Below are positions 7,044-64,000 of a stretch of 64,000 bases of DNA, piece after piece. Below the pieces are notes generated by a model. That model did not search any database and was not told the DNA's origin. It was given only the letters and a program-made list of their open reading frames with translations. Source of the DNA: Candidatus Bathyarchaeia archaeon (GTDB taxonomy: Archaea; Thermoproteota; Bathyarchaeia; 40CM-2-53-6); contig JBEKFP010000002.1 of assembly GCA_050013255.1 (NCBI GenBank), positions 705,185-769,184 on the forward strand, in the 5' to 3' direction. Both the position numbers and the translations under genes were made by a program. The stretch's first letter is position 1, and every line of letters starts with the position of its first letter.

Positions 7044-7145
7044 GGGGGCGTAGTCTAGCATGGTTATGATACGCGGCTTGGGCCCGCGTGAGTTGCCTAA
7101 ACCGCAACCGCGAAGCCCTGGGTTCAAATCCCAGCGCCCCCACCA
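7044..7145 (+). tRNA. tRNA-Pro(TGG) with a 24-nt non-canonical intron at 45/46 (7091-7114)
   Basis: Acceptor GGGGGCG/CGCCCCC-A-CCA; anticodon arm CGCGG-CT TGG GC-CCGCG; T arm CTGGG-TTCAAAT-CCCAG; BHB-like CGCG-TGA-GTTGC...GCAAC-CGCG-AAG. Confidence 0.92.
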
Positions 7146-23446: not shown

Positions 23447-23563
23447 TGGAGCCTCGGGCGGGGTTCGAACCCGCGACCTGCCGCTTTCTTGAGGCCAGGT
23501 TTACAAGGCGGCTGCTCCCCAGTGCCCGAAATATGGGCATCTACCAGGCTGAGCCACCGAGGC
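23447..23563 (-). tRNA. tRNA-Thr(TGT) with two introns (about 24 nt in the D-arm; 16 nt at 37/38)
   Basis: Reverse complement: GCCTCGG...GCCGC-CT TGT A[intron]A-GCGGC...GCGGG-TTCGAAC-CCCGC-CCGAGGC-T-CCA; U73 discriminator fits archaeal Thr. Confidence 0.92.
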
Positions 23564-24952: not shown

Positions 24953-25063
24953 GCCGGGGTGGCTCAGACTGGTAGAGCGCCAGCCAGGCTAAAGGGACGA
25001 AACTCATAATCTGGAAAGCATTGGGCCCAGAAGCCGCGGGTTCGAATCCCGCTCCCGGCACCA
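24953..25063 (+). tRNA. tRNA-Met(CAT), probably elongator, with two non-canonical introns (about 18 nt at 30/31; 16 nt at 45/46)
   Basis: GCCGGGG/TCCCGGC-A-CCA; reconstituted CCAGA-CT CAT AA-TCTGG; BHB CTGG-AAA-GC..GC-CCAG-AAG. Confidence 0.88.
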
Positions 25064-34512: not shown

Positions 34513-34929
34513 ATGCGTGGTTCAAAGATGCCAATGTGTCAGGCCTGTGGCAAAGCCAACTCGGATGATGCAAGGTACTGTTTCAGCTGCGGCGTGTCGC
34601 TTGTCAATATACCACCTGTCAAAGTTGATGTGAAGTCACCTCTGACAGCTTCCATGAAGCCAACCCCCGCAGCTCCTATGTCCCCATTAACCTATGCTCC
34701 GAGGCAATTGCAGAGGCAAGGAAGCTGCTACTATCACTCCGAGTTGCCATCAGCATTCGTCTGCTCAAGATGTGGAAGGTCAATTTGTGCATCCTGTAAC
34801 AGACAATATGGAGTCCTAAGCCTGTGCACGGAATGTTACTGGGGATTGGCGCCGAAGCTGGGGTCTCAATCCGACCAATACGTGATGGGTGGCGAACAGC
34901 AAGCGCGTTCACCCTTCTCGCCTTTCTAG
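34513..34929 (+). CDS. Soluble zinc-ribbon + B-box-type zinc-finger protein (paralog of the 30073 N-terminus)
   Basis: CQACG..NSDDARYCFSCG; CYYH..AFVCSRCGRSICASC...LCTEC. Confidence 0.85.
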   Translation: MRGSKMPMCQACGKANSDDARYCFSCGVSLVNIPPVKVDVKSPLTASMKPTPAAPMSPLTYAPRQLQRQGSCYYHSELPSAFVCSRCGRSICASCNRQYGVLSLCTECYWGLAPKLGSQSDQYVMGGEQQARSPFSPF

Positions 34930-36626
34930 GCTAAGCGACCCTGATTCTTTAGCCGACTCGTTATTGTCTTGAGTTCTTCAATAGGAATTCCGAGTTCCGC
35001 TGAGGCCGTGCTTAACGAGATTACGCCTTCATGCTTCACGATGTAATCGTATACCTTATCATCCAAAGGCGGTACCATGGGCGCTTCCATCGGAGCTCCG
35101 CACTTTTCACAGAATGTCCCCTTCGGAACAAGATTCCCACAGGTACTGCAAATCTGCATTCCAACCGGGGCGGTGGGCGCGCCTACTGAAGCAGGAGGAT
35201 TAAGCATTGGTCGCGCACGGTCGAACGCACCGCGTCTGCGTGCAAGAACGAACGCCACCGCGACGACCACGACCGCGATTCCGCCACCACCAAAGAGTTC
35301 GACAAGCGGAAGATAGTCAAAGCTCCACTCAGCTTGGACAACGTACGGTCTGTCCACAGTCAGACTCCATGAATGATCAGTCTTCGTGAGGACCCCTGAC
35401 GAGGGCTCGAGCTGCCAACCAGTTAGAGTGTATGAAATAGGCCAAGTTTGAGAACTAGTAGTGGCAGTGATATTTGCTGTGGACCCGCGGTCATACCACC
35501 CTGACCCTGCAACCGAACCCTGCGAAGATCGCACATCCACATAATACTGGGTCTTGTACGAGATGGTGATTGTACGCGGCTGATCCATGACCACTGTGTA
35601 GGACGGGTTTGAAGAAGTTGAATTATTGTCGGTCCAACCGATGAAGCTAAGGCGCTCGACGGAGCTCAATTTGACAGTTGATGGAGCTGGGCCAAGCTGG
35701 ACATTTGAGTTGACATCATACCAGCCTGCATGAGATTCGTTATATCCTGAGGAAATGCTCACTGGGTTGTATTGAACGGCAAGCAAGTATTGAGCGAGAA
35801 AATTCGCACTGACTGTCTGTGGCCGGTCCATTAGGACCCGCCCAGTCGTTGATTGACCCGAGTAGTCTCCGCTCCAGTGTTCAAACATAAGACGCGTATT
35901 GTCACTGGCCGGCAGAACTGCAGCAGCGGAGAAGGTCGCTTCGCTCCCCGAATCATACCAACCAGAGCCGGAGAGGCCCGAAACGTTGGCGGGGTTGGAC
36001 ACCACTGTCAAAAGGAATTGCGTCTTCCAGTTCGCTATGGCGGTCTTCGGCCCAGTCATGAATATTTGCGCCGTAGTCAAACTAGTTCCAGACGCGTCTC
36101 CTGACCATCCTGTGAAGACTTCTCGTGTTCCTTGACCCTGATCGACATTCGCGTCATTCACGGTCGCTTGCACCGCCGTGTCAGATTCATACCACCCTTG
36201 ACCGGTCGAGGTGCTGTAAGATGTTTTTACGGTGAGATAGTATTGCGCTGTGTAAGTGAAAATGTGGCTGCCGGCCGCGGTGAAGCTCCATGACGCGTCC
36301 TGCTCATAGAAACGCGTGCCGTTAGCTAAGATGCTATTCGGGACGTAAGAATCTACTGTGATTATGTGGCCGGTGTTTGGAACGGAGAACGTTAAGGAAA
36401 GGGTCTGGCCCCCGTTAATGGTTGTGTTGAAGGTCCCATCAACGTAGAGGTTAGTGCTAACGGTTGATGGAAGGCCTGCTATGCTAACTGAAACCGAGTA
36501 AGAGAGCTGGGCTCCGACATATGGTGTGATAAGACCAGCTACGACAAGGCAAAACGCGAGCGTTAACAATGGCCGCGCGGAAAGATGCAACCCCGGTCTT
36601 CTCGTCTCGTGAGTTCGAAGCCCCAT
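34926..36626 (-). CDS. Single-pass surface protein: extracellular beta-repeat domains, TM, cytoplasmic double zinc ribbon and wHTH (PCI-like) tail
   Basis: Signal peptide; four QY.L.V...G.GWYD...GW...MD.P repeats; TM then RRRG; CSTC/CEKC; KVYDYIVKHEGVISLSTASAELGI. Confidence 0.8.
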   Translation of the reverse strand: MGLRTHETRRPGLHLSARPLLTLAFCLVVAGLITPYVGAQLSYSVSVSIAGLPSTVSTNLYVDGTFNTTINGGQTLSLTFSVPNTGHIITVDSYVPNSILANGTRFYEQDASWSFTAAGSHIFTYTAQYYLTVKTSYSTSTGQGWYESDTAVQATVNDANVDQGQGTREVFTGWSGDASGTSLTTAQIFMTGPKTAIANWKTQFLLTVVSNPANVSGLSGSGWYDSGSEATFSAAAVLPASDNTRLMFEHWSGDYSGQSTTGRVLMDRPQTVSANFLAQYLLAVQYNPVSISSGYNESHAGWYDVNSNVQLGPAPSTVKLSSVERLSFIGWTDNNSTSSNPSYTVVMDQPRTITISYKTQYYVDVRSSQGSVAGSGWYDRGSTANITATTSSQTWPISYTLTGWQLEPSSGVLTKTDHSWSLTVDRPYVVQAEWSFDYLPLVELFGGGGIAVVVVAVAFVLARRRGAFDRARPMLNPPASVGAPTAPVGMQICSTCGNLVPKGTFCEKCGAPMEAPMVPPLDDKVYDYIVKHEGVISLSTASAELGIPIEELKTITSRLKNQGRLA

Positions 36627-37235
36627 GCCTTAAGTATTTTAGAGCACGCTATAGTGTTGGTTAAACCGCGAAAAGGGTTTCATTTTGAGCTGATTCAATG
36701 AAAATTGAATTCAGTTGCATGGAAACTTACTTTGAAAGTAGTAACTCAACAAGGTCGATAAGAGAACGCCTCCGATGAGAGCAGACTTCCGACAATTCTC
36801 CTTGAAGAGCTAACGCAGATATAACGCCCCGACAGAAGAACATGACAGGAAGTGGCCTTTGTACGTGCCTAGCCGGTCTGTGTCGAAAAAAATGAGACAA
36901 TAACAACTAGATTCCTGCTCGTTCAATTGCTCTGTTAAACATGTAGTCCCATAGCGTCCTCGGGTATTTGCCCCCTTCGTCCAAAAAGATCCTCAATCTC
37001 GATAAATGATGCATTTTGGATGTTCTCTGTAGAGACCAAGCGCTTTGAGGTACAAGGCCTTCGCGACTGTGCCTCCATCAGTAAAACAGGAGTCAGAGTC
37101 TTTCGGTAGATCTCTTCGACCCTTCTCTTGGCTCCGTCGGTGAAATCATGGGAAAGAACCAAGAACCCCAAAGATCTCGCTTCAAGTCCCCTTCTTTAGA
37201 ATTAATTTTCGTTGCCATAATTTGTGTGGTTCCGC

Positions 37236-37658
37236 TCAATTTCCTTTGTCAGTTATTGCCTGTTCTATTCCCTGTTTGAATGCATTTAGAACACTCGGTA
37301 TAACCTCAAAGTATAGAAGATGTTCTTCGTCAGGATGCGGTTCTCCGTAGTGCTTTATGGACTTGGATTCTAAGGTCAGACCGAGCCAACTTGAGAGTAT
37401 CAAGCTAGCCGCCCAGCAAAGGTTCTCAAAAGTCATCGAGGCGGGCCTTCCGTCGTTGTTAACTCTTTGATACTTTGAACTCAATTCAGCGCATAACCTC
37501 TGGGATAACTCTCTTAGCGTCTCGAAAGCCGCTGAAGCAGTATCTCCCTTTTCAGAATTAAATTTCCGAGCTAAACCCGTTAAGTTGATACCTGTTGGAT
37601 TTCTCGCGTCGAGATAGAAGATGGTGGGTTTTGCCGACGATCCTTTATTGGTAATCAT
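37236..37658 (-). CDS. Hypothetical protein
   Basis: 140-aa ATG ORF with TATA-like TTTAAA upstream; no recognisable motif. Confidence 0.5.
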   Translation of the reverse strand: MITNKGSSAKPTIFYLDARNPTGINLTGLARKFNSEKGDTASAAFETLRELSQRLCAELSSKYQRVNNDGRPASMTFENLCWAASLILSSWLGLTLESKSIKHYGEPHPDEEHLLYFEVIPSVLNAFKQGIEQAITDKGN

Positions 37659-37804
37659 GCAAACGTGTGTGCTGATCCTGACTTTAAAGAACTTCGAAGT
37701 TGTTTGGAACTAATGGTACCCACACACACAAACGACGATTCAAATTCTAGTGCTCGCACCACTAGTACCACACGCTCAACCATAATCCCGTTGGCGAAAT
37801 GGAA

Positions 37805-37969
37805 ATGGACAAACTCGTATTCATCGCAGGCCTCTTCCTCCTGATCGACGCAGTAGGCTCAATCCTACTACCCGGCAACACGCATCGCTTCTGGTACAAC
37901 GCTGAACGAGTCGCACGCGGCATACTCGCAATCGGACTCATGTATTACGCGTGGAAATACCTGAAATAG
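37805..37969 (+). CDS. 54-aa two-TM membrane microprotein (not in ORF track)
   Basis: MDKLVFIAGLFLLIDAVGSILLPGNTHRFWYNAERVARGILAIGLMYYAWKYLK*. Confidence 0.6.
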   Translation: MDKLVFIAGLFLLIDAVGSILLPGNTHRFWYNAERVARGILAIGLMYYAWKYLK

Positions 37970-38170
37970 GAAGTGGCGAAAATGAGTCAAGAACAAGATG
38001 CGGGGCGATTTGTCACGTGGCCTGAATACTTGAAAGGCCATCTGGAACGCACCAGTTATACCACATACGAAGAACCACCGGTTTGTTTCACGCCCTAGCT
38101 GTGGTTGGACAAGTTGCGTCCCATGAGAACCCACGCTCACAATTAGGGCGAAATCGCAAATATGATGCAA

Positions 38171-38281
38171 CTAAACTCGTGGACAATTCTTTTTGTGGAG
38201 TGCAAATATCTCCGGACTGTTTGTCTCGAAGCCGCATTTTTGGCAAACTGCTCGTTTTCCTTCCTGGTTAGATCCCGACAT
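38171..38281 (-). CDS. 36-aa C2HC zinc-finger microprotein, copy 1
   Basis: MSGSNQEGKRAVCQKCGFETNSPEIFALHKKNCPRV*; paralog at 39718. Confidence 0.7.
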   Translation of the reverse strand: MSGSNQEGKRAVCQKCGFETNSPEIFALHKKNCPRV

Positions 38282-38453
38282 AGCAAACTCGTTGGTCAAG
38301 GAGGCCAAGGTCAAGTAAGAACATGCCGCCGAACAACACATGTAAGAACGAGCCGCGTAAGTCTGAACCTTTCCAAAAGAAGGCTCCACCCAGATAACCC
38401 TCAGCCTTCATCGATGGCTCAGGCAATGAAATTGCGGGAACCAACGTGTCGGC

Positions 38454-38651
38454 TCATGGCGTGATCTTCCTGATTGCGCTGATTGGAAAACCGCCATGTT
38501 CTCTGGCATACTGGAGGCAGTCATCGCAAACCCACCACACATTATGAATATTATTCGTGACTTTATCGCACTTCACGGGTTTACCGTCACGTTCAACGAT
38601 GACATCGCATTTGCCTGATTCTGGAATTTGCCTCCCCATATCTATGCGCAT
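38454..38651 (-). CDS. Small Cys-rich (possible zinc-binding) hypothetical protein
   Basis: C-x12-C...CDDC pattern. Confidence 0.5.
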   Translation of the reverse strand: MRIDMGRQIPESGKCDVIVERDGKPVKCDKVTNNIHNVWWVCDDCLQYAREHGGFPISAIRKITP

Positions 38652-38782
38652 TGCGTGACATTACTTGCTGGATGAGGAAGCGGAAATTCTATTCTCAATC
38701 AAGGGTTCAGGAACTTCTTGCGTGCTCCGCAAATTGTATTCATATAGGCTTCCCTCACTAGAGCACCTTAAGTATCACTCAG

Positions 38783-39352
38783 GTGCGCCCTCTGGCCGAA
38801 CACAAAGCGTACATCAACATCGAGAACGTGGTCGCGACAGCAACTATCCATCAGAATATTGATTTGAACTCTATCGTACGCGTATTCCCTGGCGTAGAAT
38901 ATAGGCCTGAGCAATTTCCGGGCTTAGTATATCGATTGAAGAAACCGAAGGCCACCACCTTGATCTTCGGCTCGGGTAAAATGGTCTGTACTGGGTCGAA
39001 GTCGGAGCGGCAGGCTCACAAGGCCGTCATGAAGGTTGTGGACGAGCTCAGCCGTAACGGGATCGTCATTTTGGGTAAGCCTGAGATTCAGGTTCAAAAC
39101 ATAGTAGCCTCGGCAGGTTTAGGCGGCCATATTGATTTGGAAAAGGTAACCTACTCACTGAAACGCACCATGTATGAACCCGAACAGTTCCCTGGCCTCA
39201 TCTACAGAATGGACGACCCCAAAGTAGTCATACTAATCTTCACAACCGGAAAGCTCGTTTGTACGGGCGCCAAGAAAGAGGCGGACGTTCACAGATCCAT
39301 CGCAAAACTGCAAGAAACGCTTGAAGAGAAAGAGCTCATAACCTACCCGTAG
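38783..39352 (+). CDS. tbp: TATA-box binding protein
   Basis: Two repeats: IENVVA..Y.PEQFPGLVYR..LIFGSGKMVCTG and VQNIVAS..YEPEQFPGLIYR..LIFTTGKLVCTGAK. Confidence 0.98.
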   Translation: MRPLAEHKAYINIENVVATATIHQNIDLNSIVRVFPGVEYRPEQFPGLVYRLKKPKATTLIFGSGKMVCTGSKSERQAHKAVMKVVDELSRNGIVILGKPEIQVQNIVASAGLGGHIDLEKVTYSLKRTMYEPEQFPGLIYRMDDPKVVILIFTTGKLVCTGAKKEADVHRSIAKLQETLEEKELITYP

Positions 39353-39717
39353 TCCCGAATCGGAGACGCACTGCTCCCTTCTATCCTTGACATGGCATTC
39401 AAGGGAAAATTGTAATCATTGACTCATGTTCCTTAACGCTTACACGTGGACATCCACGTCCCCCAAACCACATCCACATGGCCATCCCAAAACAGCGCTT
39501 ACGTAATATGCCCGTACTATTGGTGCGTACACACACGAAAATCTTGTCTGATTTTAGTGGAGTGCCCCCTAACTACCACTCTTTCACCAATTTCACCACG
39601 AGCCAATTCTGAGACCAGTGCATCAACTCACCTCTAGCCTGGGCCGGGGCCTAATTGAAGTAGGGGAATCGATAAGGTATTAGTGTATGTTTGAATAACT
39701 GATGGCGTTGTTTAACC

Positions 39718-39831
39718 ATGATGTCTAGGTTCGAAAAGGAAGGACAACGATTTGTGTGCGATAAGTGTGGTTTCGAAACGAACAGTTCAGAAATCTTTCC
39801 TTTACACAAGAAGAATTGTCCCAGAATTTAG
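39718..39831 (+). CDS. 37-aa C2HC zinc-finger microprotein, copy 2 (not in ORF track)
   Basis: MMSRFEKEGQRFVCDKCGFETNSSEIFPLHKKNCPRI*. Confidence 0.7.
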   Translation: MMSRFEKEGQRFVCDKCGFETNSSEIFPLHKKNCPRI

Positions 39832-39922
39832 TTTCCTCTGCCCGCACCATAAGACCCACGCACACGAAAATGTTTGACAAAAAACTGGGATTTCCGTTCA
39901 TTACCGGTCCTAGGATGTTCGC

Positions 39923-40075
39923 CTAGTATCTTCGGTGCTTCTGGTAGCACTCTCTACAGTAGACCGGTTTACCCGTCGTCGGCACAAACGGTACTTCCGT
40001 ATCTGCACCGCACTCAGAGCATTTGACTTTCGTCATTTGCCTCGGGGCACCGTAACTTCTATTCTGATAACCCAT
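39923..40075 (-). CDS. CxxC-x17-CxxC domain small protein (not in ORF track)
   Basis: MGYQNRSYGAPRQMTKVKCSECGADTEVPFVPTTGKPVYCRECYQKHRRY*; EVPF.P...PVYC is the family hallmark. Confidence 0.88.
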   Translation of the reverse strand: MGYQNRSYGAPRQMTKVKCSECGADTEVPFVPTTGKPVYCRECYQKHRRY

Positions 40076-40423
40076 TTTGTTTTCCACCGTCCTATTCTCT
40101 AGTTATACGAAAGATAATACTCGCCGCGATAATCGGCACGAGCTTGACGGCTCTCCCATCATCCACGCAGGTAAGACCTCCAGTATACTGCCTACGCAAT
40201 AGGCAAGACCACCATAAAAACTGATTTCGTGCTCATACTTTGTGACAATTGAAGATGGAAGATCAGAAGAAAAGCAAACGTGCCTCATTTCCTGGTTCGA
40301 CATAGGATCGCTACTACGTTTTCTCAGAGGTGGGTATGGTTCTTTGACGAAGTCTCAACGAAGTAAGAAAGGAAGATTAAATGCGTATATGACTGCACGC
40401 CCGCAATTCGGTTGTAGTCTAGC

Positions 40424-40747
40424 ATGCAGTTCTTCCCGAAATGTAGTTTGGCGCTCATTCCAATTAAGAAGGAAAAGATTGTTGTGCTAGCATGCCCTAA
40501 GTGCGGAGAAGAAACTAGACCGTCGGATCCGATGGTACAGAAATTCGGAAAGGCCAAGGAATCCGTCGTGGTAATCGGTAAGGGTGAGAAGAACCTACAG
40601 ACTCTCCCGACCATGAAAGTTAGCTGCCAAAAATGCGGGCATGGAGAAGCCTTCTATTGGATGGTACAAACTCGCGGTGGCGATGAAGCCTCGACACAGT
40701 TCTTCAGGTGTACGAAATGCGGACGGACATGGCGAGAGTATTCATGA
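40424..40747 (+). CDS. tfs: Transcription factor S (TFS/RpoM)
   Basis: C-terminal CQKC..WMVQTRGGDE..TQFFRCTKCGRTWREY with the acidic DE hairpin. Confidence 0.95.
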   Translation: MQFFPKCSLALIPIKKEKIVVLACPKCGEETRPSDPMVQKFGKAKESVVVIGKGEKNLQTLPTMKVSCQKCGHGEAFYWMVQTRGGDEASTQFFRCTKCGRTWREYS

Positions 40748-41007
40748 AATTACAATGATTAGAGGTATGTGAACACCATTAGACCCACTACCACGACCGA
40801 CAAGAACAGGAAGAAAGCAGATAATGCAAGCAGAACTAGCACTTGAACGCCACGCAAGAGAACCAATCGCAGAGAAGAATCCTAGGCTACCGACTTTTCA
40901 TAGGTGTGGGTCTAATGGTGCGCACACACACAAAGTACTACTGAGACGAGGGAAAAACAGGGAAGGCTAGGATGGTACGATACGAGAGCAGGAGTACATT
41001 CGAATCG

Positions 41008-41283
41008 TTACCTGTAAGATTCCGCGTCAACTTTCGCCATTGGGTATACTCCGTCTACTGGAAGCCCAGGAACTTTAGCGAGAACCTTGCGTATTGACTC
41101 AGCATCTTTTGCGTCCCACTCACAGAATATCTTAACCGCCTTTCCTTGTTCGTTTAGCTGTATCGTACCACCAATCCAATAAGCGTCCAAGGTGACATTG
41201 GCTTTGGCTTTCTTAGCGAACACTCCAGCCTCCTCAATCGTTGCGGGCGACGGTAGCGTGTGAGCCACTAGGAACTTTCCCAT
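41008..41283 (-). CDS. Small DUF4242/DUF3303-like protein
   Basis: KFLVAH...YW...KIFCEWDAKDAESI pattern; GGAGGTGA SD upstream. Confidence 0.6.
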   Translation of the reverse strand: MGKFLVAHTLPSPATIEEAGVFAKKAKANVTLDAYWIGGTIQLNEQGKAVKIFCEWDAKDAESIRKVLAKVPGLPVDGVYPMAKVDAESYR

Positions 41284-41540
41284 CTCATTTCACCTCCTCT
41301 GTTTCCTCATATCGTAATTGCTTAACTTGCCCAGCCGGAAAAGGACGAAGAACAATAGTCATCTATGCGTGGTTAACACTTGCCATTCCATACGGAATTA
41401 CCGCTGTGAATTCGATAGCTGATATTCCCAAACGAAATCCGAAGCGGTCTCTTCGCCACGCAGACAGGGCATCACTCACATATCCGGATTCATACCGCAA
41501 AGAAATCTGACTATGAGGAGTTTTGTGTGTGTGGGTCTAA

Positions 41541-41564
41541 TGGTGCGGGCGACCGAATTTGAAC
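41541..41564 (-). other. tRNA 3'-end-like fragment (att-like remnant)
   Basis: Reverse complement GTTCAAATTCGGTCGCCCGCACCA gives T-loop + acceptor 3' strand + ACCA; no 5' half present. Confidence 0.6.
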
Positions 41565-41862
41565 ACGTTCTCTAGGCTACTGTTAAACGCAACCTAGACC
41601 ACGCTAGATGAGCTTCATTTTCAGACTAGAATTGAGTCTTATTCCTACAGAACTTTAGGATGAAAATACTTTGCCCCGAAGGAATCGTCGTCATGACAGA
41701 ACTCGATTATGTAAGCTGTTGAGCCAAGAAATGTGTTTTAACCAGCATTATAGAGTGGTGTTAAGCATTTTACATATCTGCGTTCGAGGTAAACACCCAG
41801 CGCTAATGAGAATACCACGCATTCAAGGTGGAGAATAGAAGACTCGAGGGAATTGATGCAGA

Positions 41863-42159
41863 ATGGTGTCCACGCCTTATACAAGGGGCCGAAGCCGCGA
41901 ATACCAAGTCCTACGCTTATTGAGAGCAGAAGGTTGGTTCTGCAGTAGAAGCGCGGCCTCCCATGGACCAGTTGACATTTTCGCAGGACGTGGCGGGCGT
42001 ATACTCATGGTTCAGGTCAAAAGCGGACAGGGCAGAGCAACGGAATCAGAACGGAAAACGCTCAAGCTTTGGGGAGAAGCTTTCCGGGGAACAGTTGAGA
42101 TATGGAAGTTTAGGAAGGGTAAAGCCCTGGAGAAGGAAACTGTGTATGAGTACGAATAA
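41863..42159 (+). CDS. Hjc-like PD-(D/E)xK nuclease (archaeal Holliday junction resolvase family)
   Basis: G..REY.V...L...GW...RSAAS.GPVDIFA...MVQVKS. Confidence 0.8.
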   Translation: MVSTPYTRGRSREYQVLRLLRAEGWFCSRSAASHGPVDIFAGRGGRILMVQVKSGQGRATESERKTLKLWGEAFRGTVEIWKFRKGKALEKETVYEYE

Positions 42160-42164
42160 AGGGC

Positions 42165-42488
42165 CTAATGCGTTGCGTGCATCTCGATTTCTTTGAGGGT
42201 CTCCTCGATGGCTTTCTTCGGTAGGCCACGGCCCTGTACACCGTCCCTTCTGAAGACCGGCCGGCCGTCTCTGAAGACAATTACTGTTGGGACAATGCTG
42301 ATCCCGAACCTTTCCCACAACGGATTATCATCGTCACTAATGTCAACCTCAGCCCATCGGACTCCATTGCCGTTTAACGCTTCGTTAAATTCCGCATAGA
42401 AACTTCTGCAAAACGGGCACCATTCGGCGTAGAAAAGCACGGGAATTGTATCCGTACTCTTCAGACGATCCCCCTCAAAATCCGCCAA
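42165..42488 (-). CDS. Thioredoxin
   Basis: FYAEWCPFC; cis-Pro IVPTVIVFRDG. Confidence 0.92.
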   Translation of the reverse strand: MADFEGDRLKSTDTIPVLFYAEWCPFCRSFYAEFNEALNGNGVRWAEVDISDDDNPLWERFGISIVPTVIVFRDGRPVFRRDGVQGRGLPKKAIEETLKEIEMHATH

Positions 42489-42603
42489 GTGTAATTCCGT
42501 ATTCCTTTCCCTGTTGCTGCGCGAGGAGTGCTCATGGCTTTGAAGCTATCCCTGAACAACAAGTCAAATTCTCCACTAATGCTTTCCGTGAGCAAGACTT
42601 ATT

Positions 42604-43233
42604 ATGCTCGAATTGAATTCGGTTTTTCTCAAACCCAATTTGGTGATGAAATTGCCCGAGAAAATCAACGAATCACCCGACAACATTGGCAACCTGAAGG
42701 AAGAAGTGGCTCGGTTAAGAGAAGAAGTACAGCGCCTCTCGCAAGCTATTCCTTCTCAGAAAGCCAAACAGTCGGAAACATCGAGCAGACCAAGTTTCGG
42801 CGAGTCCCTATCAGAGTACGTTAACGACGTTGTTCAGAGCGTAATCTCCGGGATATCCTCGGAGATTGAACGATCGGTCCTTGTGGATCCCACAGGCGCT
42901 TGGTTCGATCGTCACGTGGCAAAAGCCCAAGCGAGGTCGATGAGCGCCGCGGAAGCAGAAAGGGCTTCCACCTTGATGGGCGCGATGGCCAGCGAGCATC
43001 GCCTTCGAATTTTGAGCGAACTCCTTTACGGAGGGAGGTACGCGAGCGAGATAGAATCCGTTCTCAAGGATATCTCCCCGAGCACAATCTCTAGTCACCT
43101 CAAAATCCTTGAAGAAGCTGGCCTCGTGGTACAGGAAGGGGACCGAGGGCGCTATCTCATTACCCTCCCAGGGAGAATTGCGTTGAAGATGTCGACACGC
43201 CTAACCCGTTTCCTTGAGCATAGGCGATCATAG
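42604..43233 (+). CDS. ArsR/SmtB-family wHTH regulator with N-terminal extension
   Basis: ASEHRLRILSEL...SPSTISSHLKILEEAGLV...RGRYLIT. Confidence 0.85.
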   Translation: MLELNSVFLKPNLVMKLPEKINESPDNIGNLKEEVARLREEVQRLSQAIPSQKAKQSETSSRPSFGESLSEYVNDVVQSVISGISSEIERSVLVDPTGAWFDRHVAKAQARSMSAAEAERASTLMGAMASEHRLRILSELLYGGRYASEIESVLKDISPSTISSHLKILEEAGLVVQEGDRGRYLITLPGRIALKMSTRLTRFLEHRRS

Positions 43234-43324
43234 ACTGCTCAAGCATTCAGCCTTAGTGAGCATACTCACGATGCGAACGCATTTTAGTTAGCGCAGCAAA
43301 CGGCTTTCGCGGCGAATTGTCTCT

Positions 43325-44227
43325 ATGGTGGACAACTTTAGGCTCCGAGGAATCATAACGGCGCTCGTTACCCCTTTCACCCAGAACGGCGAGGTTGACG
43401 AAGAGGCCTTACGCGAAATTGTCAGATTCCAGTTGAAAGCCAGAGTGAACGGTTTCTATCCCCTGGGGACCACGGGCTTGGGTCCGGCAATGGAGGCCTT
43501 TGAGAGAAAACGAGTCGCTGAAGTTGTTGTGGAAGAAACAAATGGGCACGTCCCTGTCATTGTGCAGATTGGTGCTTCCGAGCCCAGAGTCAGCCTGGAA
43601 CTTGCGCTCCACGCCGAGAAGATCGGAGCCGACGCGGTGGCCAGCCTAACCCCCTTCTATTATCATCCGGGAGACGAAGCAATCATCGAGTATTATCAGA
43701 AATTATCACGTACCACGAGCCTCCCCTTGTTCGTATACAACATTCCACCAAATACAGGGTTTAACGTCGATGCCAAACTACTCCAGAAATTGAGTGAAAT
43801 TCCGAAAGTTATTGGCATCAAGGATAGCAGTGGAGACTTTACGCAGCTTCTAGATTACATGCGCAATGTTCCCGACGACTTCAACGTAATCACAGGAACG
43901 GACTCATACCTTTTCTCAGCCCTTTGCGCCGGTATCCACGGCGGCGTTTCAGCTACCGCAAACGCATTTCCCGAACATTTTGTGGAAATGTACGAAGCTT
44001 ACAACACGAAGGATTTTGAAAAGGGAAAGGCTCTGCAAATCAAAATACGCGCCCTTCGCAATGCGTTGTCCACACCTCCCCTGGCACCAATCCTGGAGGC
44101 TCTGAAGATGAGGGGCCTGAAAAGAGGCTATGTGAGACTACCACTACGATCGATGCATGCTAACGAGGTAGAGGCCTTACGCGTTACAGTAAACCGCATT
44201 CTGCCAGAGATGAAACTACCAGCTTAA
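43325..44227 (+). CDS. DapA/DHDPS-family class I aldolase
   Basis: ALVTPF, GTTG, TPFYY, YNIP..TG, GIKDSSGD. Confidence 0.92.
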   Translation: MVDNFRLRGIITALVTPFTQNGEVDEEALREIVRFQLKARVNGFYPLGTTGLGPAMEAFERKRVAEVVVEETNGHVPVIVQIGASEPRVSLELALHAEKIGADAVASLTPFYYHPGDEAIIEYYQKLSRTTSLPLFVYNIPPNTGFNVDAKLLQKLSEIPKVIGIKDSSGDFTQLLDYMRNVPDDFNVITGTDSYLFSALCAGIHGGVSATANAFPEHFVEMYEAYNTKDFEKGKALQIKIRALRNALSTPPLAPILEALKMRGLKRGYVRLPLRSMHANEVEALRVTVNRILPEMKLPA

Positions 44228-45330
44228 GGACTAGTCGCCGCAAACGAATCCAACGTCCCCTTCGCGATGGGCTTCCCAGCCTTCTCTTTTTCCAAACCTG
44301 ACAGCCTGACCCCGACAAGCCGTACCTTCTTTGGATTATTCCTGAATTCGGCTGCGAGGGCTCGTATTCCCTCAACTATCGGTTCCTTACTCGAGGTTGC
44401 GAACCGTAGTGACTTTGCTCGGGTGTAGGTTTGAAAGCCGGTAAATCGCACCTTCAAGGTTATTGTTCGAAAAGCCTTGTTTTCGTTCATCAATCGATTG
44501 TAGACCTGGTCAATCAGGTCAGACAGCTGCCTATCTATGACAGGCCAATCATTAGTATCCACCTCAAATGTGTGTTCGGCCCCGATAGATTTCATCACGT
44601 AGTTCTCTTGAACTTCTACTTGCTCCTCTGCGTTGGCTATAGCCCACAGCCATACTGCTGGCTTGCCAAATTTCTTAAGCAAATCTTTGGGAGGGTACTT
44701 GGCAAGATCGCCAATCGTCTTGATTCCAAGTTGGATAAGTGTTTGCTCTGTTTTCTTTCCAACCCCGCTTATCTTGGAAACTGGCAGGGGAGCGAGGAAC
44801 TCCTTCACGTGCGCGGCTTCCACGTAAGTTAACCCCTCGGGTTTTTGGAAATCCGACGCTATCTTGGCCGTAGATTTGTTCGGAGCTATCCCAATCGAAC
44901 AAGTGAGTCCTTCCTCTTCCTTTAGTTCAGTTTTGATCAGCCTCGCCAATTCAAGGGGGCCGCCATGGCGTTTGCAGCTCTCAGTTACATCCAAGTAGGC
45001 TTCGTCTATGCTAACCTGTTCAAACCTGTCAGCATATTTCTTGATTCTCTCCATAACATCGGTTGAGACCTGGCCGTACAAAGCTAGGTTGGGTGGCACG
45101 TAGACGCCTTGTGGACACAACTTGTAAGCTCTAGATATTGGCTGGCCCGAATGCAATCCAAGCTTTCTCGCTTCGTACGAACATGCAACGACGACGCCCC
45201 TACCCTTGCCCTCCTTAGGCTCAGCGCCAATGACAAGCGAAACGCCACGTAGAGAAGGGTTCTCCCTTTGCTCCACTGAAGCATAGAACGCATCTAGGTC
45301 CACATGGAATATGACTCGCGCCAACTTCAC
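44224..45330 (-). CDS. dinB: Y-family DNA polymerase IV
   Basis: HVDLDAFYASVE, SYEARK.G, SIDEAYLD, AKIASD.QKP.G, GVGKKT. Confidence 0.96.
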   Translation of the reverse strand: MKLARVIFHVDLDAFYASVEQRENPSLRGVSLVIGAEPKEGKGRGVVVACSYEARKLGLHSGQPISRAYKLCPQGVYVPPNLALYGQVSTDVMERIKKYADRFEQVSIDEAYLDVTESCKRHGGPLELARLIKTELKEEEGLTCSIGIAPNKSTAKIASDFQKPEGLTYVEAAHVKEFLAPLPVSKISGVGKKTEQTLIQLGIKTIGDLAKYPPKDLLKKFGKPAVWLWAIANAEEQVEVQENYVMKSIGAEHTFEVDTNDWPVIDRQLSDLIDQVYNRLMNENKAFRTITLKVRFTGFQTYTRAKSLRFATSSKEPIVEGIRALAAEFRNNPKKVRLVGVRLSGLEKEKAGKPIAKGTLDSFAATSP

Positions 45331-58562: not shown

Positions 58563-58655
58563 GGGCCTGTAGCTCAGCTTGGCTGGAGCACACGACTGAT
58601 AGGATGCATCTCAGAAATCGTGGGGTCGCCGGTTCGAATCCGGCCAGGCCCACCA
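58563..58655 (+). tRNA. tRNA-Ile(GAT) with a 15-nt canonical 37/38 intron
   Basis: GGGCCTG/CAGGCCC-A-CCA; CACGA-CT GAT A[GGATGCATCTCAGAA]A-TCGTG. Confidence 0.95.
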
Positions 58656-63517: not shown

Positions 63518-64000
63518 TTACGCGTCACTCGGCATACGATTTTCTGCGGCCGTATTTAATCGATGGGGCTCGATTTTGATTGTCCCCAGAAAACTACGCC
63601 ACAATCCTCCGCTGCGCTGAAGGGTTATCGGCAGACGAAAAAGGGTTTGGATAGACCACACATTGAAATCAACGATGAAGCGTGCGGGCACTCACACTTT
63701 CTTGCTGACACGCCAAGGATTGGGCGTGATTCATGGAGAATGTGTCATAAGGTTCTGTGTGGCACGATTGGTTTTCCGCGTCTCCACTAGTTCTTGGCTA
63801 AATGAGAAAAATGGTTCGCACTGTGCATAGGCCTCGAACGTCCATTTGACGGTGGGTTCCATTTTCAGTTCAACACCTTGAGCGATTGGGGGCAGCACGC
63901 TAAACACGTCGACCGAAGTCTTCGTGCGTACACGCCTGCTCCATCAAACCCATCTTCTTTGGGAGCCCTCGTCCAACCCTGACGCCCGTTACCGAGTGTC

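Follow-up and report, generated by a model that had tools for sequence, protein, structure and literature searches.

The family-2 casposons of Methanosarcina mazei are among the closest described counterparts of the locus reported here. They produce 14-bp target-site duplications (TSDs) with an invariant 5'-CGCA, which corresponds to the final 4 bp of tRNA-Leu. About 30 bp of tRNA sequence is required upstream, and tandem insertions and solo terminal inverted repeats (TIRs) occur (PMC4779613; PMC6977970). The casposon paper itself likens casposons to the pile-ups of Tn7-type elements (PMC4779613). We analysed a cluster of repeated sites in a Bathyarchaeia genome, within a window of 64,000 nucleotides (the window is the whole stretch of DNA analysed). 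We regard the region 36726–41845 as a pile-up of Cas1-less casposon-like elements, most likely inserted by a Cas1-family casposase encoded elsewhere, with a probability of about 0.78. No casposon-built, integron-like array of this sort was found described in the literature.

Anatomy of the repeated sites

The seven lox/att-like sites of the original prediction are all present at their positions (Table 1). The 8-mer core CTAATGGT/ACCATTAG is exact at 37710, 40775, 40912 and 41537, and one-base variants are located at 37759 (ACCACTAG), 39517 (CTATTGGT) and 39846 (ACCATAAG). The 8-mer by itself is weak evidence (4 found versus 1.6 expected). The 14-base core CGCACCANWRGNMC (CGCACCA-N4-ACC type) has five exact matches in the 64-kb window, all within 37755–41547, where 0.04 are expected, and five or more were obtained in 0 of 100 shuffles. 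Two or three decayed copies accompany the exact ones. Those at 37707–37720 and 40772–40785 have better-preserved versions in congeners; the position homologous to the latter reads AGCACCATTAGACC in G007 and CGCACCATTGTACC in G008. A 2-mismatch core at 38048–38061 is at chance level. The perfect 15-bp inverted repeat (40774–88 and 40906–20) and the 19-bp direct repeat (40904–22 and 41529–47) read as originally described. The observation of repeated sites is confirmed as real, and the stretch affected is larger than the 37700–41565 first reported.

Each site is a junction of three parts and not a lox/att site. The upstream part is a (GT)n element tip or a mimic of a tRNA 3' end (the 'pad', GGTTCAAATT-N5-GCC), the second part is the asymmetric 14-bp TSD, and the third part is the next element's tip, CACACAC or GGGCATAT. 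The inverted arms had been taken for those of a tyrosine recombinase. This assignment is rejected: the arms are TIR tips of neighbouring elements, with the 14-bp TSD between them instead of a 6–8-bp spacer.

The pad is laid out like a tRNA 3' end, with a T-loop box followed by 5 bases, 3 bases and CGCA-CCA. The spacing is constant in about 32 pad copies and equal to that in real tRNA genes of this genome. CGCA closes the tRNA-like body ahead of CCA, as in the M. mazei target. The proposed derivation of the core from a tRNA 3' end (...GCCCGCA-CCA) holds. The anchoring pad is apparently not a tRNA gene: neither ARAGORN nor Rfam, even at E up to 10, gave a tRNA at 41548–41640.

Table 1. Features of the variable region and its right border
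Feature	Position	Strand	Evidence
Left edge of variable region: filler and 78-aa ORF (36935–37171, minus)	36726–37199		No Pfam match
Cassette with 140-aa ORF (37236–37658); CA-type tip decayed in the window	37200–37706	-	No Pfam match
Decayed 14-bp core (site 37710)	37707–37720	-	3 mismatches; intact core at homologous position in G014:C50
CA tip, then directly a portable landing pad (T-loop-like box 37737–37746, N5, GCT)	37721–37754	+	Sequence reading
14-bp core/TSD CGCACCACTAGTAC (site 37758)	37755–37768	+	Exact core match
Cassette with 56-aa membrane-like ORF (37799–37969)	37769–38001	+	92% identical in G011:C10
Block common to other genomes	38100–38684		87–92% identical in G017:C3 and G004:C13; no Pfam match
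TBP cassette, left-truncated; TBP gene 38783–39352, right end 39454–39513	38685–39513	+	Pfam TBP, E 4.7e-63
14-bp core/TSD CGCACCAATAGTAC (site 39517)	39514–39527	-	Exact core match
Small zinc-finger cassette: CA tip 39528–39537, 37-aa CxxC...HxxxxC ORF 39718–39831	39528–39842	+	
14-bp core/TSD CGCACCATAAGACC (site 39846)	39843–39856	+	Exact core match
TFS cassette	39857–40771	+	Pfam matches
Treble-clef zinc-finger gene of TFS cassette	39923–40087	-	
66-aa ORF of TFS cassette	40103–40303	-	
TFS/TFIIS-type gene of TFS cassette	40424–40747		
Decayed core AACACCATTAGACC (site 40775)	40772–40785	+	2 mismatches
123-bp remnant: two element left ends face to face, inverted cores flanking	40786–40908		
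TSD copy 2 of E1 (site 40912)	40909–40922	-	Exact match; identical to 41534–41547
E1: intact 611-bp enzyme-less element with 12-bp perfect TIRs (CACACACACAAA)	40923–41533	-	
TSD copy 1 of E1 (site 41537)	41534–41547	-	Exact core match
Anchoring landing pad: GGC, N5, T-loop-like box (read on the minus strand)	41548–41565	-	
Pad-associated stretch up to conserved right flank	41566–41845		
First right-flank gene, Hjc-like	41863–42159		Pfam Hjc, 27.7 bits

Elements between the sites

E1 is bordered by identical 14-mers beside a pad, and it is the only element of the window with a clean TSD pair. Its cargo is an SCO4226-like gene (41008–41283; Pfam, 31 bits), which in G021:C109, G018:C2 and G007:C40 adjoins junctions of a GT tip with other cores. 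The right end of the TBP cassette belongs to a second TIR class, which starts with GGGCATAT. A complete 5.2-kb element with a 14-bp TSD (C1:716105–721311) has perfect 60-bp TIRs of this class, and the cassette end matches them at 44 of 60 positions. The tip of this class, ...ATATCCCC-3', is similar to the TATATCCC end of M. mazei (PMC6977970). From 38685, four congeners have a common, different upstream continuation, and in G007 the cassette end adjoins a T-box pad with a different TSD.

A TFS element with the same CA-type left end is present in G011:C6, G007:C10 and G008:C10 at 88–93% identity, and its flanking cores and contexts differ. The two cores bordering the TFS cassette are unequal (11 of 14 positions identical here), as they also are in G007 and G008. 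The zinc-finger cassette, whose flanking cores point outward, is 96% identical in G021:C36 and G004:C15, and a further copy is located in this genome at C1:197410–197608. The CACACCTATGAAAAGTC end of the 123-bp remnant is found again at C1:197650, C1:633268 and C1:1153264. The block 37200–37706 has 91–94% identical copies in G014:C50 and G019:C5; the G014 copy ends in an intact junction of GT tip, GGTCTAATGGTGCG and CA tip. The tip and pad module at 37721–37754 is of a type found in at least eight places of the genome.

Comparison with related genomes

The locus is a variable insertion hotspot. No insertion is present in G019, G013 and G001 and hardly any in G021, and the contents are different in G004, G018 and G014. 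The conserved left flank stops at about 36712–36725 in G019, G013, G021 and G004. On the right, the stretch 41566–41845 is common to G021 and G018 and absent from G019, G013 and G001; the homologous pad in G021 and G018 is followed in each by a different first element and N4. The 56-aa cassette is the only window cassette at the homologous locus of G004, where a GT tip and the same core precede it. The window cassettes (TBP, TFS, zinc fingers, SCO4226-like) are placed elsewhere in congeners with 90–97% identity. This holds for the TBP and TFS cassettes at their other loci, whereas the flanks are 71–90% identical. A metagenome strain of 98.4% identity lacks 36726–36984 and has the same cassette order; thus there is no sign of very recent movement at the locus.

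The original prediction had named a uniform position at promoters, as for a transcription-factor site, together with full synteny between the copies in relatives, as the result that would speak against it. The segments are non-syntenic, and this test therefore does not refute it. The same comparison bears on the idea that the motif serves regulation, as a promoter, terminator or transcription-factor site common to small genes, and is not a scar of mobility. The sites are intergenic, and often located 30–60 bp upstream of start codons (e.g. 37755 before the ATG at 37799), as such an element would be. However, the inter-site segments are absent or elsewhere in congeners, the sites pair as duplications around elements, and the motif occurs in about 15 islands and not at promoters in general. 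We consider this reading of the motif very improbable.

According to the genome scan, about 80–105 copies of the motif are present in about 15 clusters of this 2.46-Mb genome. Of 22 congeners, 20 contain the motif, and it was found in none of the 18 genomes searched outside the genus; the reversed pattern, used as a control, gave 2 matches over all 41 genomes. The motif family spans the genus. Of 25 'opening' sites in the whole genome, 10 are followed downstream by a 'closing' site with identical variable TSD bases. Shuffling gave 2.1 such pairs on average and 8 at most, and none of 2000 shuffles reached 10. TSD pairing is far above chance. At least three end classes use one common target.

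Cas1 casposases and complete elements

A complete 16.3-kb element is located at C1:1330290–1346547. Its CA-type TIRs are about 45 bp long, the same 14-bp TSD borders it on either side, and a pad lies upstream. An intact 407-aa Cas1 is the only recombinase-family match in the ten longest ORFs of the element. From residue 4 to 402, the C-terminal part included, this Cas1 aligns with the M. mazei casposase (PDB 6OPM) at 253 bits; CRISPR Cas1 reached no more than 88 bits. Two intact casposase genes are encoded in the genome, at C1:1333420–1334640 and C3:231179–232393, both off the contig of the window. At the C3 locus a pad and the TSD precede the second Cas1 element; a further copy of this TSD separates that element from a 5.6-kb CA-tipped one, which is followed by a third copy. 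Complete elements with these ends occur both with and without Cas1. No cas2 gene, CRISPR-type repeats or effector genes were detected at either Cas1 locus. PolB is absent from both Cas1 elements: PF00136 matches only at C2:17.9k, 399.8k and 658.9k, outside both, and no PolB was seen among the ORFs of the 16.3-kb element. A PF03175 search gave no match, but its control matched nowhere either. Arg191 and Arg192, which contact CGCA in M. mazei (PMC6977970), align with His and Gln here, and this counts against the casposase reading.

Casposase homologues were detected in 12 of the 22 congeners, and one of the 18 genomes from other genera also had one. Nine congeners with sites gave no casposase match, including G016 and G018 (96–98% complete). 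These genomes leave some room for dispersed REP- or MITE-like repeats, moved by another transposase or mainly by homologous recombination, with Cas1 elements that merely carry the repeats or land in them. The use of one target by several end classes and the many irregular junctions (unequal flanking cores, inverted cores) agree with such repeats. Against them stands the Cas1 of the CA-tipped 16.3-kb element as the only recombinase-family match among its ten longest ORFs, and a 14-bp TSD that starts with CGCA beside a tRNA-like leader is the signature of a family-2 casposase (PMC4779613; PMC6977970). In addition, no Y1/RAYT transposase was found in the genome; REP/BIME with RAYT was rejected, as PF01797 was not found in this genome rated 100% complete. 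Dispersed repeats of this kind are unlikely.

The third alternative is an integron-like or lox/att system, in which the inverted arms would be bound by a tyrosine recombinase supplied in trans, and strand exchange in the core would capture, excise or invert cassettes. The sites lie in both orientations around single genes, and the perfect 15-bp inverted pair could be the trace of an inversion. Some cassettes keep the core at one end across genomes (56-aa cassette ...CACCACTAGTAC in G000 and G004), and the genome has three tyrosine recombinases (C3:28.7k, C3:131.5k and C2:259.2k). However, the arms are tips that run into the 45–60-bp TIRs of complete elements, and the variable core bases pair as duplications around elements. 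The recombinase inside a complete element with these ends and the duplication is the Cas1 casposase. Two of the three tyrosine recombinases have an ARAGORN-called tRNA gene within about 0.5 kb, and none lies beside any site cluster. Neither an attC-like structure nor an attI/integrase platform was seen, and the head of the array is a tRNA-like pad beside the Hjc-like gene. The lox/att/dif and integron models were rejected on these grounds, and such a system is distinctly unlikely. The original proposal is partly supported: the mobile cassette boundaries, the scars of repeated integration and the inferred enzyme in trans stand, whereas the tyrosine-recombinase lox/att or integron model does not.

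Proposed mechanism

Neither Cas1 nor, as predicted, an integrase (a tyrosine recombinase) was found in the window, and Cas1 is also absent from its contig. We therefore infer that the casposase acts on the window cassettes in trans. It would recognise the pad mimicking a tRNA 3' end (T-loop-like box, 5 bases, GCC, then CGCA-CCA) and join the two 3' ends of the element to staggered positions 14 bp apart. Repair would duplicate the 14 bp, so that every element is bordered by the core CGCACCA-N4-ACC. This would account for the three-part make-up of every originally described 'site', in which the asymmetric 14-bp duplication has an element tip or the pad on one side and the following element's tip on the other. 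The target would be regenerated by each insertion, and many elements also carry a spare pad just inside one end; thus insertions would stack and nest into a repeat-gene-repeat array. Inverted copies probably have two sources: elements with nested pads may be inserted in either direction, and palindromic junctions may recombine or invert. The zinc-finger cassette and the 123-bp remnant are bordered by inverted and not direct cores, so extra events would be needed there.

Relation to known systems

The Bathyarchaeia system shares with the M. mazei family-2 casposon a casposase homologous over the full length. The 14-bp TSD starting with CGCA, the last four bases of the tRNA-like body, the tRNA-like sequence upstream at a fixed distance, the TIRs, the tandem insertions with a common TSD and the solo ends are also shared. 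TIRs are found in E1 (12 bp, perfect), at one end of the TBP cassette (about 60 bp) and in the Cas1 element (about 45 bp), and TSDs of the casposon type (14–15 bp with 5'-CGCA) in the 14-mers of E1 and the genome-wide pairing. The window units encode no Cas1-family casposase with a C-terminal HTH extension and are therefore non-autonomous at best. In contrast to the M. mazei elements, they are 0.3–1 kb units with one to three ordinary genes, the Cas1 elements are without PolB, and the target is a portable tRNA mimic at many non-tRNA places, also inside elements. The use of one target by at least three end classes and the CGCA-contacting arginines, unconserved in the alignment, are further differences.

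As in the pile-ups at attTn7, where a site-specific transposase repeatedly hits one conserved target and genomic islands arise, intact and dead elements accumulate. The enzyme here would be Cas1 instead of a DDE transposase with TnsD, and the target is regenerated and carried by elements. The locus resembles integron arrays (IntI, attI/attC) in its repeat-gene-repeat order, in its small, mostly single-gene, promoter-poor cassettes, and in a content that varies between close relatives at one anchored locus. Unlike those arrays, it is without an IntI-type recombinase, its boundaries read as TSD and TIR junctions and not as folded attC, and its orientations are mixed. In CRISPR arrays, Cas1–Cas2 integrates spacers at the leader-proximal repeat. 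As proposed here, a Cas1-family integrase is directed by a leader-like upstream motif, and a repeat unit is duplicated per insertion, giving a polarised array; the inserts here, however, are gene-sized with their own inverted ends. The array looks integron-like but is most likely built by CRISPR-like chemistry.

More tentatively, and with some doubt, we propose that a casposase lineage of peat Bathyarchaeia may have become a gene-cassette engine. Cassettes would carry a portable tRNA-mimic pad, and any pad could seed a self-extending, nested repeat-gene-repeat array. Through its enzyme-less units, ordinary genes (TBP and TFS paralogues in this case) would travel from locus to locus and across species. 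If this is true, the lineage would stand, still active, midway between Cas1 transposons, integrons and CRISPR arrays.

Anatomy of the repeated site

On direct sequence reading, the repeats of the original prediction are all present in the region 37700-41565. Four copies of the 8-mer core are exact and three others differ by one base, and both the 15-bp inverted pair and the 19-bp direct pair around the ORF at 41008 are confirmed. The 8-mer alone barely exceeds chance; what truly repeats is a core of 14 bases of the CGCACCA-N4-ACC type, where N4 denotes the variable bases. A degenerate form of this core is matched exactly five times in the 64-kb window, always within 37755-41547 (0.04 expected), and none of 100 shuffles reached five. 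The cores at 40772 and 37707 are decayed copies, the homologues of which are intact in congeners.

According to the side-by-side comparison of many copies, the site consists of three parts: an upstream part, the asymmetric 14-mer and a downstream element start. Therefore, the features originally ascribed to a tyrosine-recombinase site should be renamed: the "inverted arms" are the tips of two different neighbouring elements, and what was called an "asymmetric spacer" is target sequence that has been duplicated. The 14-mer starts with CGCA, and among its four variable central bases TTAG is the commonest, followed by GCTG, CTAG and GCAT. The element start is most frequently CACACACAC. Other classes start with GGGGATAT and CGCCCCCGCC, and a fourth class may exist. 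The upstream part is another element's end, (GT)n, or a pad resembling a tRNA 3' end, composed of a T-loop-like box (GGTTCAAATT), five free bases and GC(C/T). The pad spacing is constant and gapless in about 32 copies, and is the same as that of the real tRNA genes of this genome (T-loop, stem, acceptor strand, discriminator A and CCA). These genes encode their own CCA, and some finish with ...CGCACCA.

A tRNA gene at the pad was rejected. None was detected by ARAGORN or Rfam in 37000-42500, even with E up to 10, and both T-arm pairing and covariation with the copy in the congener G021 were absent. An RNA family at the locus was also rejected, with Rfam matches at chance level only. The 40-base pad and core of the window, including the five "free" bases, is identical or nearly identical at 2797-2836 of locus L029 (Ga0315296_10030730) and at 1268-1309 of locus L030 (Ga0209323_10146552), both from other metagenomes. 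Since the homology begins exactly at the T-loop-like box in contexts unrelated to the window, the pad itself seems to be copied around.

The array in the window

The units of the array are listed from right to left in the table, followed by other features of the window and the genome.

Features of the window array (right to left) and related loci; C1 and C3 are other contigs of the source genome
Feature	Position	Remarks
Anchoring pad	41548-41565	Array extends leftwards from it
E1	40923-41533	611 bp; sole clean unit: 12-bp perfect terminal inverted repeats (TIRs), identical flanking 14-mers, SCO4226-like gene
123-bp remnant	left of E1	Two element starts facing each other
TFS cassette	39857-40771	Treble-clef zinc finger, 66-aa ORF, TFIIS-type TFS
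Treble-clef block	39892-40219	About 330 bp; PF23477, 68 bits
Small zinc-finger cassette	39528-39842	
TBP cassette	38685-39513	Right end is a TIR of about 60 bp, GGGGATAT class
Unassigned block	38100-38684	
56-aa gene cassette	37769-38001	Preceded by module of CA tip, pad and core, 37721-37768
140-aa ORF cassette	37200-37706	Decayed junction
Left-border indel	36726-36984	259 bp
First conserved gene right of pad	41863-42159	Weak match (27.7 bits, above threshold) to Hjc, the Holliday-junction resolvase of archaea
tRNA genes (four)	7044-7142, 23450-23563, 24953-25060, 58563-58655	90-114 bases
23S rRNA gene, 3' end	63866-64000	At contig end
TBP/TFS gene copies	38783-39352, 40424-40747, C3:103266-103808, C1:447177, C1:1242474-1242901	
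Second treble-clef block	C1:12173-12474	
Complete GGGGATAT-class element	C1:716105-721311	5.2 kb; perfect 60-bp TIRs, TSD (duplication of the target site) of 14 bp
C1 Cas1 element	C1:1330290-1346547	16.3 kb
C1 casposase gene	C1:1333420-1334640	407 aa, intact
C3 casposase gene	C3:231179-232393	
tRNA 3'-end fragment at C3 pad, and full tRNA gene 2 kb away	C3:239056-239110, C3:241307-241401	Both with 3' end ...GGCGGCCGCACCA

The TBP cassette is truncated at its left end, and a different continuation from that point is common to four congeners. Further copies of the treble-clef block, 86-89% identical, are found in at least ten congeners, and a second one is present in this genome. The block seems to form an independent cassette module. 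The four tRNA genes of the window are presumably all intron-bearing because of their length.

Several junctions are irregular. The TFS cassette has unequal flanking cores, both in this genome and in two others, the cores on either side of the zinc-finger cassette face outward, and the 123-bp remnant has a perfect inverted pair as flanks. Simple insertion yields none of these arrangements. They could have arisen from pads carried within elements, from insertion in either orientation, or from inversion or recombination between palindromic junctions.

Distribution and candidate enzyme

Whole-genome pattern and profile scans covered the 2.46 Mb of the three contigs, of which C2 has the window at its end. 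About 80-105 motif copies were found in some 15 clusters. Allowing up to two mismatches, 20 of the 22 congeners have the motif and all 18 genomes that represent neighbouring genera and families lack it, and the reversed pattern used as a control gave two matches across all 41 genomes. The related loci are recorded as Candidatus Bathyarchaeia from peat and soil metagenomes.

No tyrosine recombinase is located beside the motif clusters, and the three of this genome are all elsewhere. The genome has two Cas1 genes, each adjoining a motif cluster. The REP/RAYT idea was ruled out, as a Y1 transposase was not found in the genome.

The Cas1 gene on C1 is surrounded by a 16.3-kb element with CA-type TIRs of about 45 bp, flanked by two identical 14-mers and preceded by a pad. 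Of the ten longest ORFs in this element, the intact Cas1 alone matches a recombinase family. Matches to other families are an AIPR protein, a DNA methylase, a DndB-like protein and an ATPase, and four ORFs have no match. The alignment of this Cas1 with the Methanosarcina mazei casposase 6OPM spans residues 4-402, the C-terminal extension among them, and scores 253 bits, against at most 88 bits for CRISPR Cas1 proteins. The second Cas1 element, with CGCCCCC-type ends, is part of the C3 array, in which a pad, a 14-mer, this element, the same 14-mer, a 5.6-kb CA-tipped element and again the same 14-mer follow one another. PolB is absent from both Cas1 elements. In the genome-wide pairing test, 10 of 25 opening sites have a downstream closing site with identical variable bases; the shuffle mean is 2.1, and 0 of 2000 shuffles reach 10. 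A casposase mechanism is probably behind the sites (probability about 0.78). A casposase match is absent in nine congeners that do have sites, some of them nearly complete assemblies. The GGGGATAT end class could not be tied to one casposase lineage: at 17 junctions in 11 genomes, no clear Cas1 was found inside such an element.

A tRNA 3'-end fragment lies just upstream of the pad anchoring the casposon stack on C3, and a full tRNA gene sharing this 3' end is 2 kb from it. The C3 array may have started from a genuine tRNA gene.

Variability and mobility

The gene content between sites differs across relatives: when 34900-44300 was compared with 22 congeners by BLAST, the flanks proved conserved and the middle variable. 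The congeners G019, G013 and G001 have the locus with neither insert nor pad. G021 has the pad and about 190 bp only, G004 has 1.1 kb in which the 56-aa cassette is the only window cassette, and G018 and G014 have about 6 and 7 kb, respectively, with different contents. At the homologous pad in the source genome, G021 and G018, the first element and N4 differ each time. Window cassettes at other loci of congeners show 90-97% identity, with flanks at 71-90%. In G004, flank identity is 75-80%, yet the TBP cassette, located on another contig, reaches 96%. The 14-mers and neighbours of the TFS and TBP cassettes also vary between genomes.

Elsewhere in the genome there are another TBP gene and two further TFS-type genes, and thus the window copies are spare paralogues. 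The window TFS looks catalytically competent because the acidic DE loop is retained. Both genes are multi-copy in the genus, with copy number partly cassette-borne, and TBP-like DNA gives several matches per congener genome (at least five in G006).

A metagenome strain with 98.4% identity (Ga0208321_1000071, locus L031) has the same cassette order with E1 in place, and the locus is otherwise colinear; the 259 bp with which the variable region starts on the left are missing there, and no core or TIR was seen at the breakpoints. Except for this indel, there is no sign of very recent movement at the locus. The one metagenome scan for an unoccupied E1 site yielded this strain and the two unrelated pad and core contexts, but no empty site.

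Relation to known casposons

Casposons are regarded as ancestors of the CRISPR adaptation module, and known ones are large, rare, PolB-carrying elements found singly or in tandem pairs. The M. mazei family-2 casposons have a TSD of 14 bp, variable in its centre, whose invariant 5'-CGCA corresponds to the four final bases of tRNA-Leu, and their integration needs about 30 bp of upstream tRNA sequence (PMC4779613, PMC6977970). Tandem insertions share the TSD, solo TIRs adjoin CGCA, and the 3' end is TATATCCC (PMC4779613, PMC6977970). Similarly, the duplication here is 14 bp (possibly 15), it starts with CGCA, with which the tRNA-like body closes ahead of CCA, and a conserved box is located 9-18 bases upstream. 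One end class here finishes with ATATCCCC. The system operates in the manner of family-2 casposons.

There are also differences. Unlike the M. mazei casposons, the Cas1 elements here have no PolB, and the two arginines of 6OPM (chain positions 208-209) reported to contact CGCA align with H and Q of the C1 casposase in the pairwise alignment, although the target still starts with CGCA. The window units have the TIRs and the TSD, but neither Cas1 nor PolB, and their target is a pad with tRNA-gene spacing at which ARAGORN and Rfam call no tRNA. The likeness to integrons is confined to architecture.

The casposon arrangements described are tandem pairs and solo TIRs only (PMC4779613). In the literature searched, casposons are not paired with MITEs. 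Papers there that mention both casposons and "non-autonomous" were judged mainly by titles and abstracts; in one of them, the term refers to TnpB/IS605 elements and not to casposons.

The casposon reading accounts for a repeat family that would otherwise mislead annotation of these genomes. The same casposon chemistry seems here to have yielded dozens of small gene-carrying units in arrays at portable tRNA-like pads. The arrays are a natural test system for polarised repeat-insert array building by a Cas1 integrase, for leader-like target recognition and for the enzyme's freedom in end sequence. They also represent a route for the spread and multiplication of core-type genes in Bathyarchaeia, with a cargo here that includes TBP, TFS and zinc-ribbon proteins.
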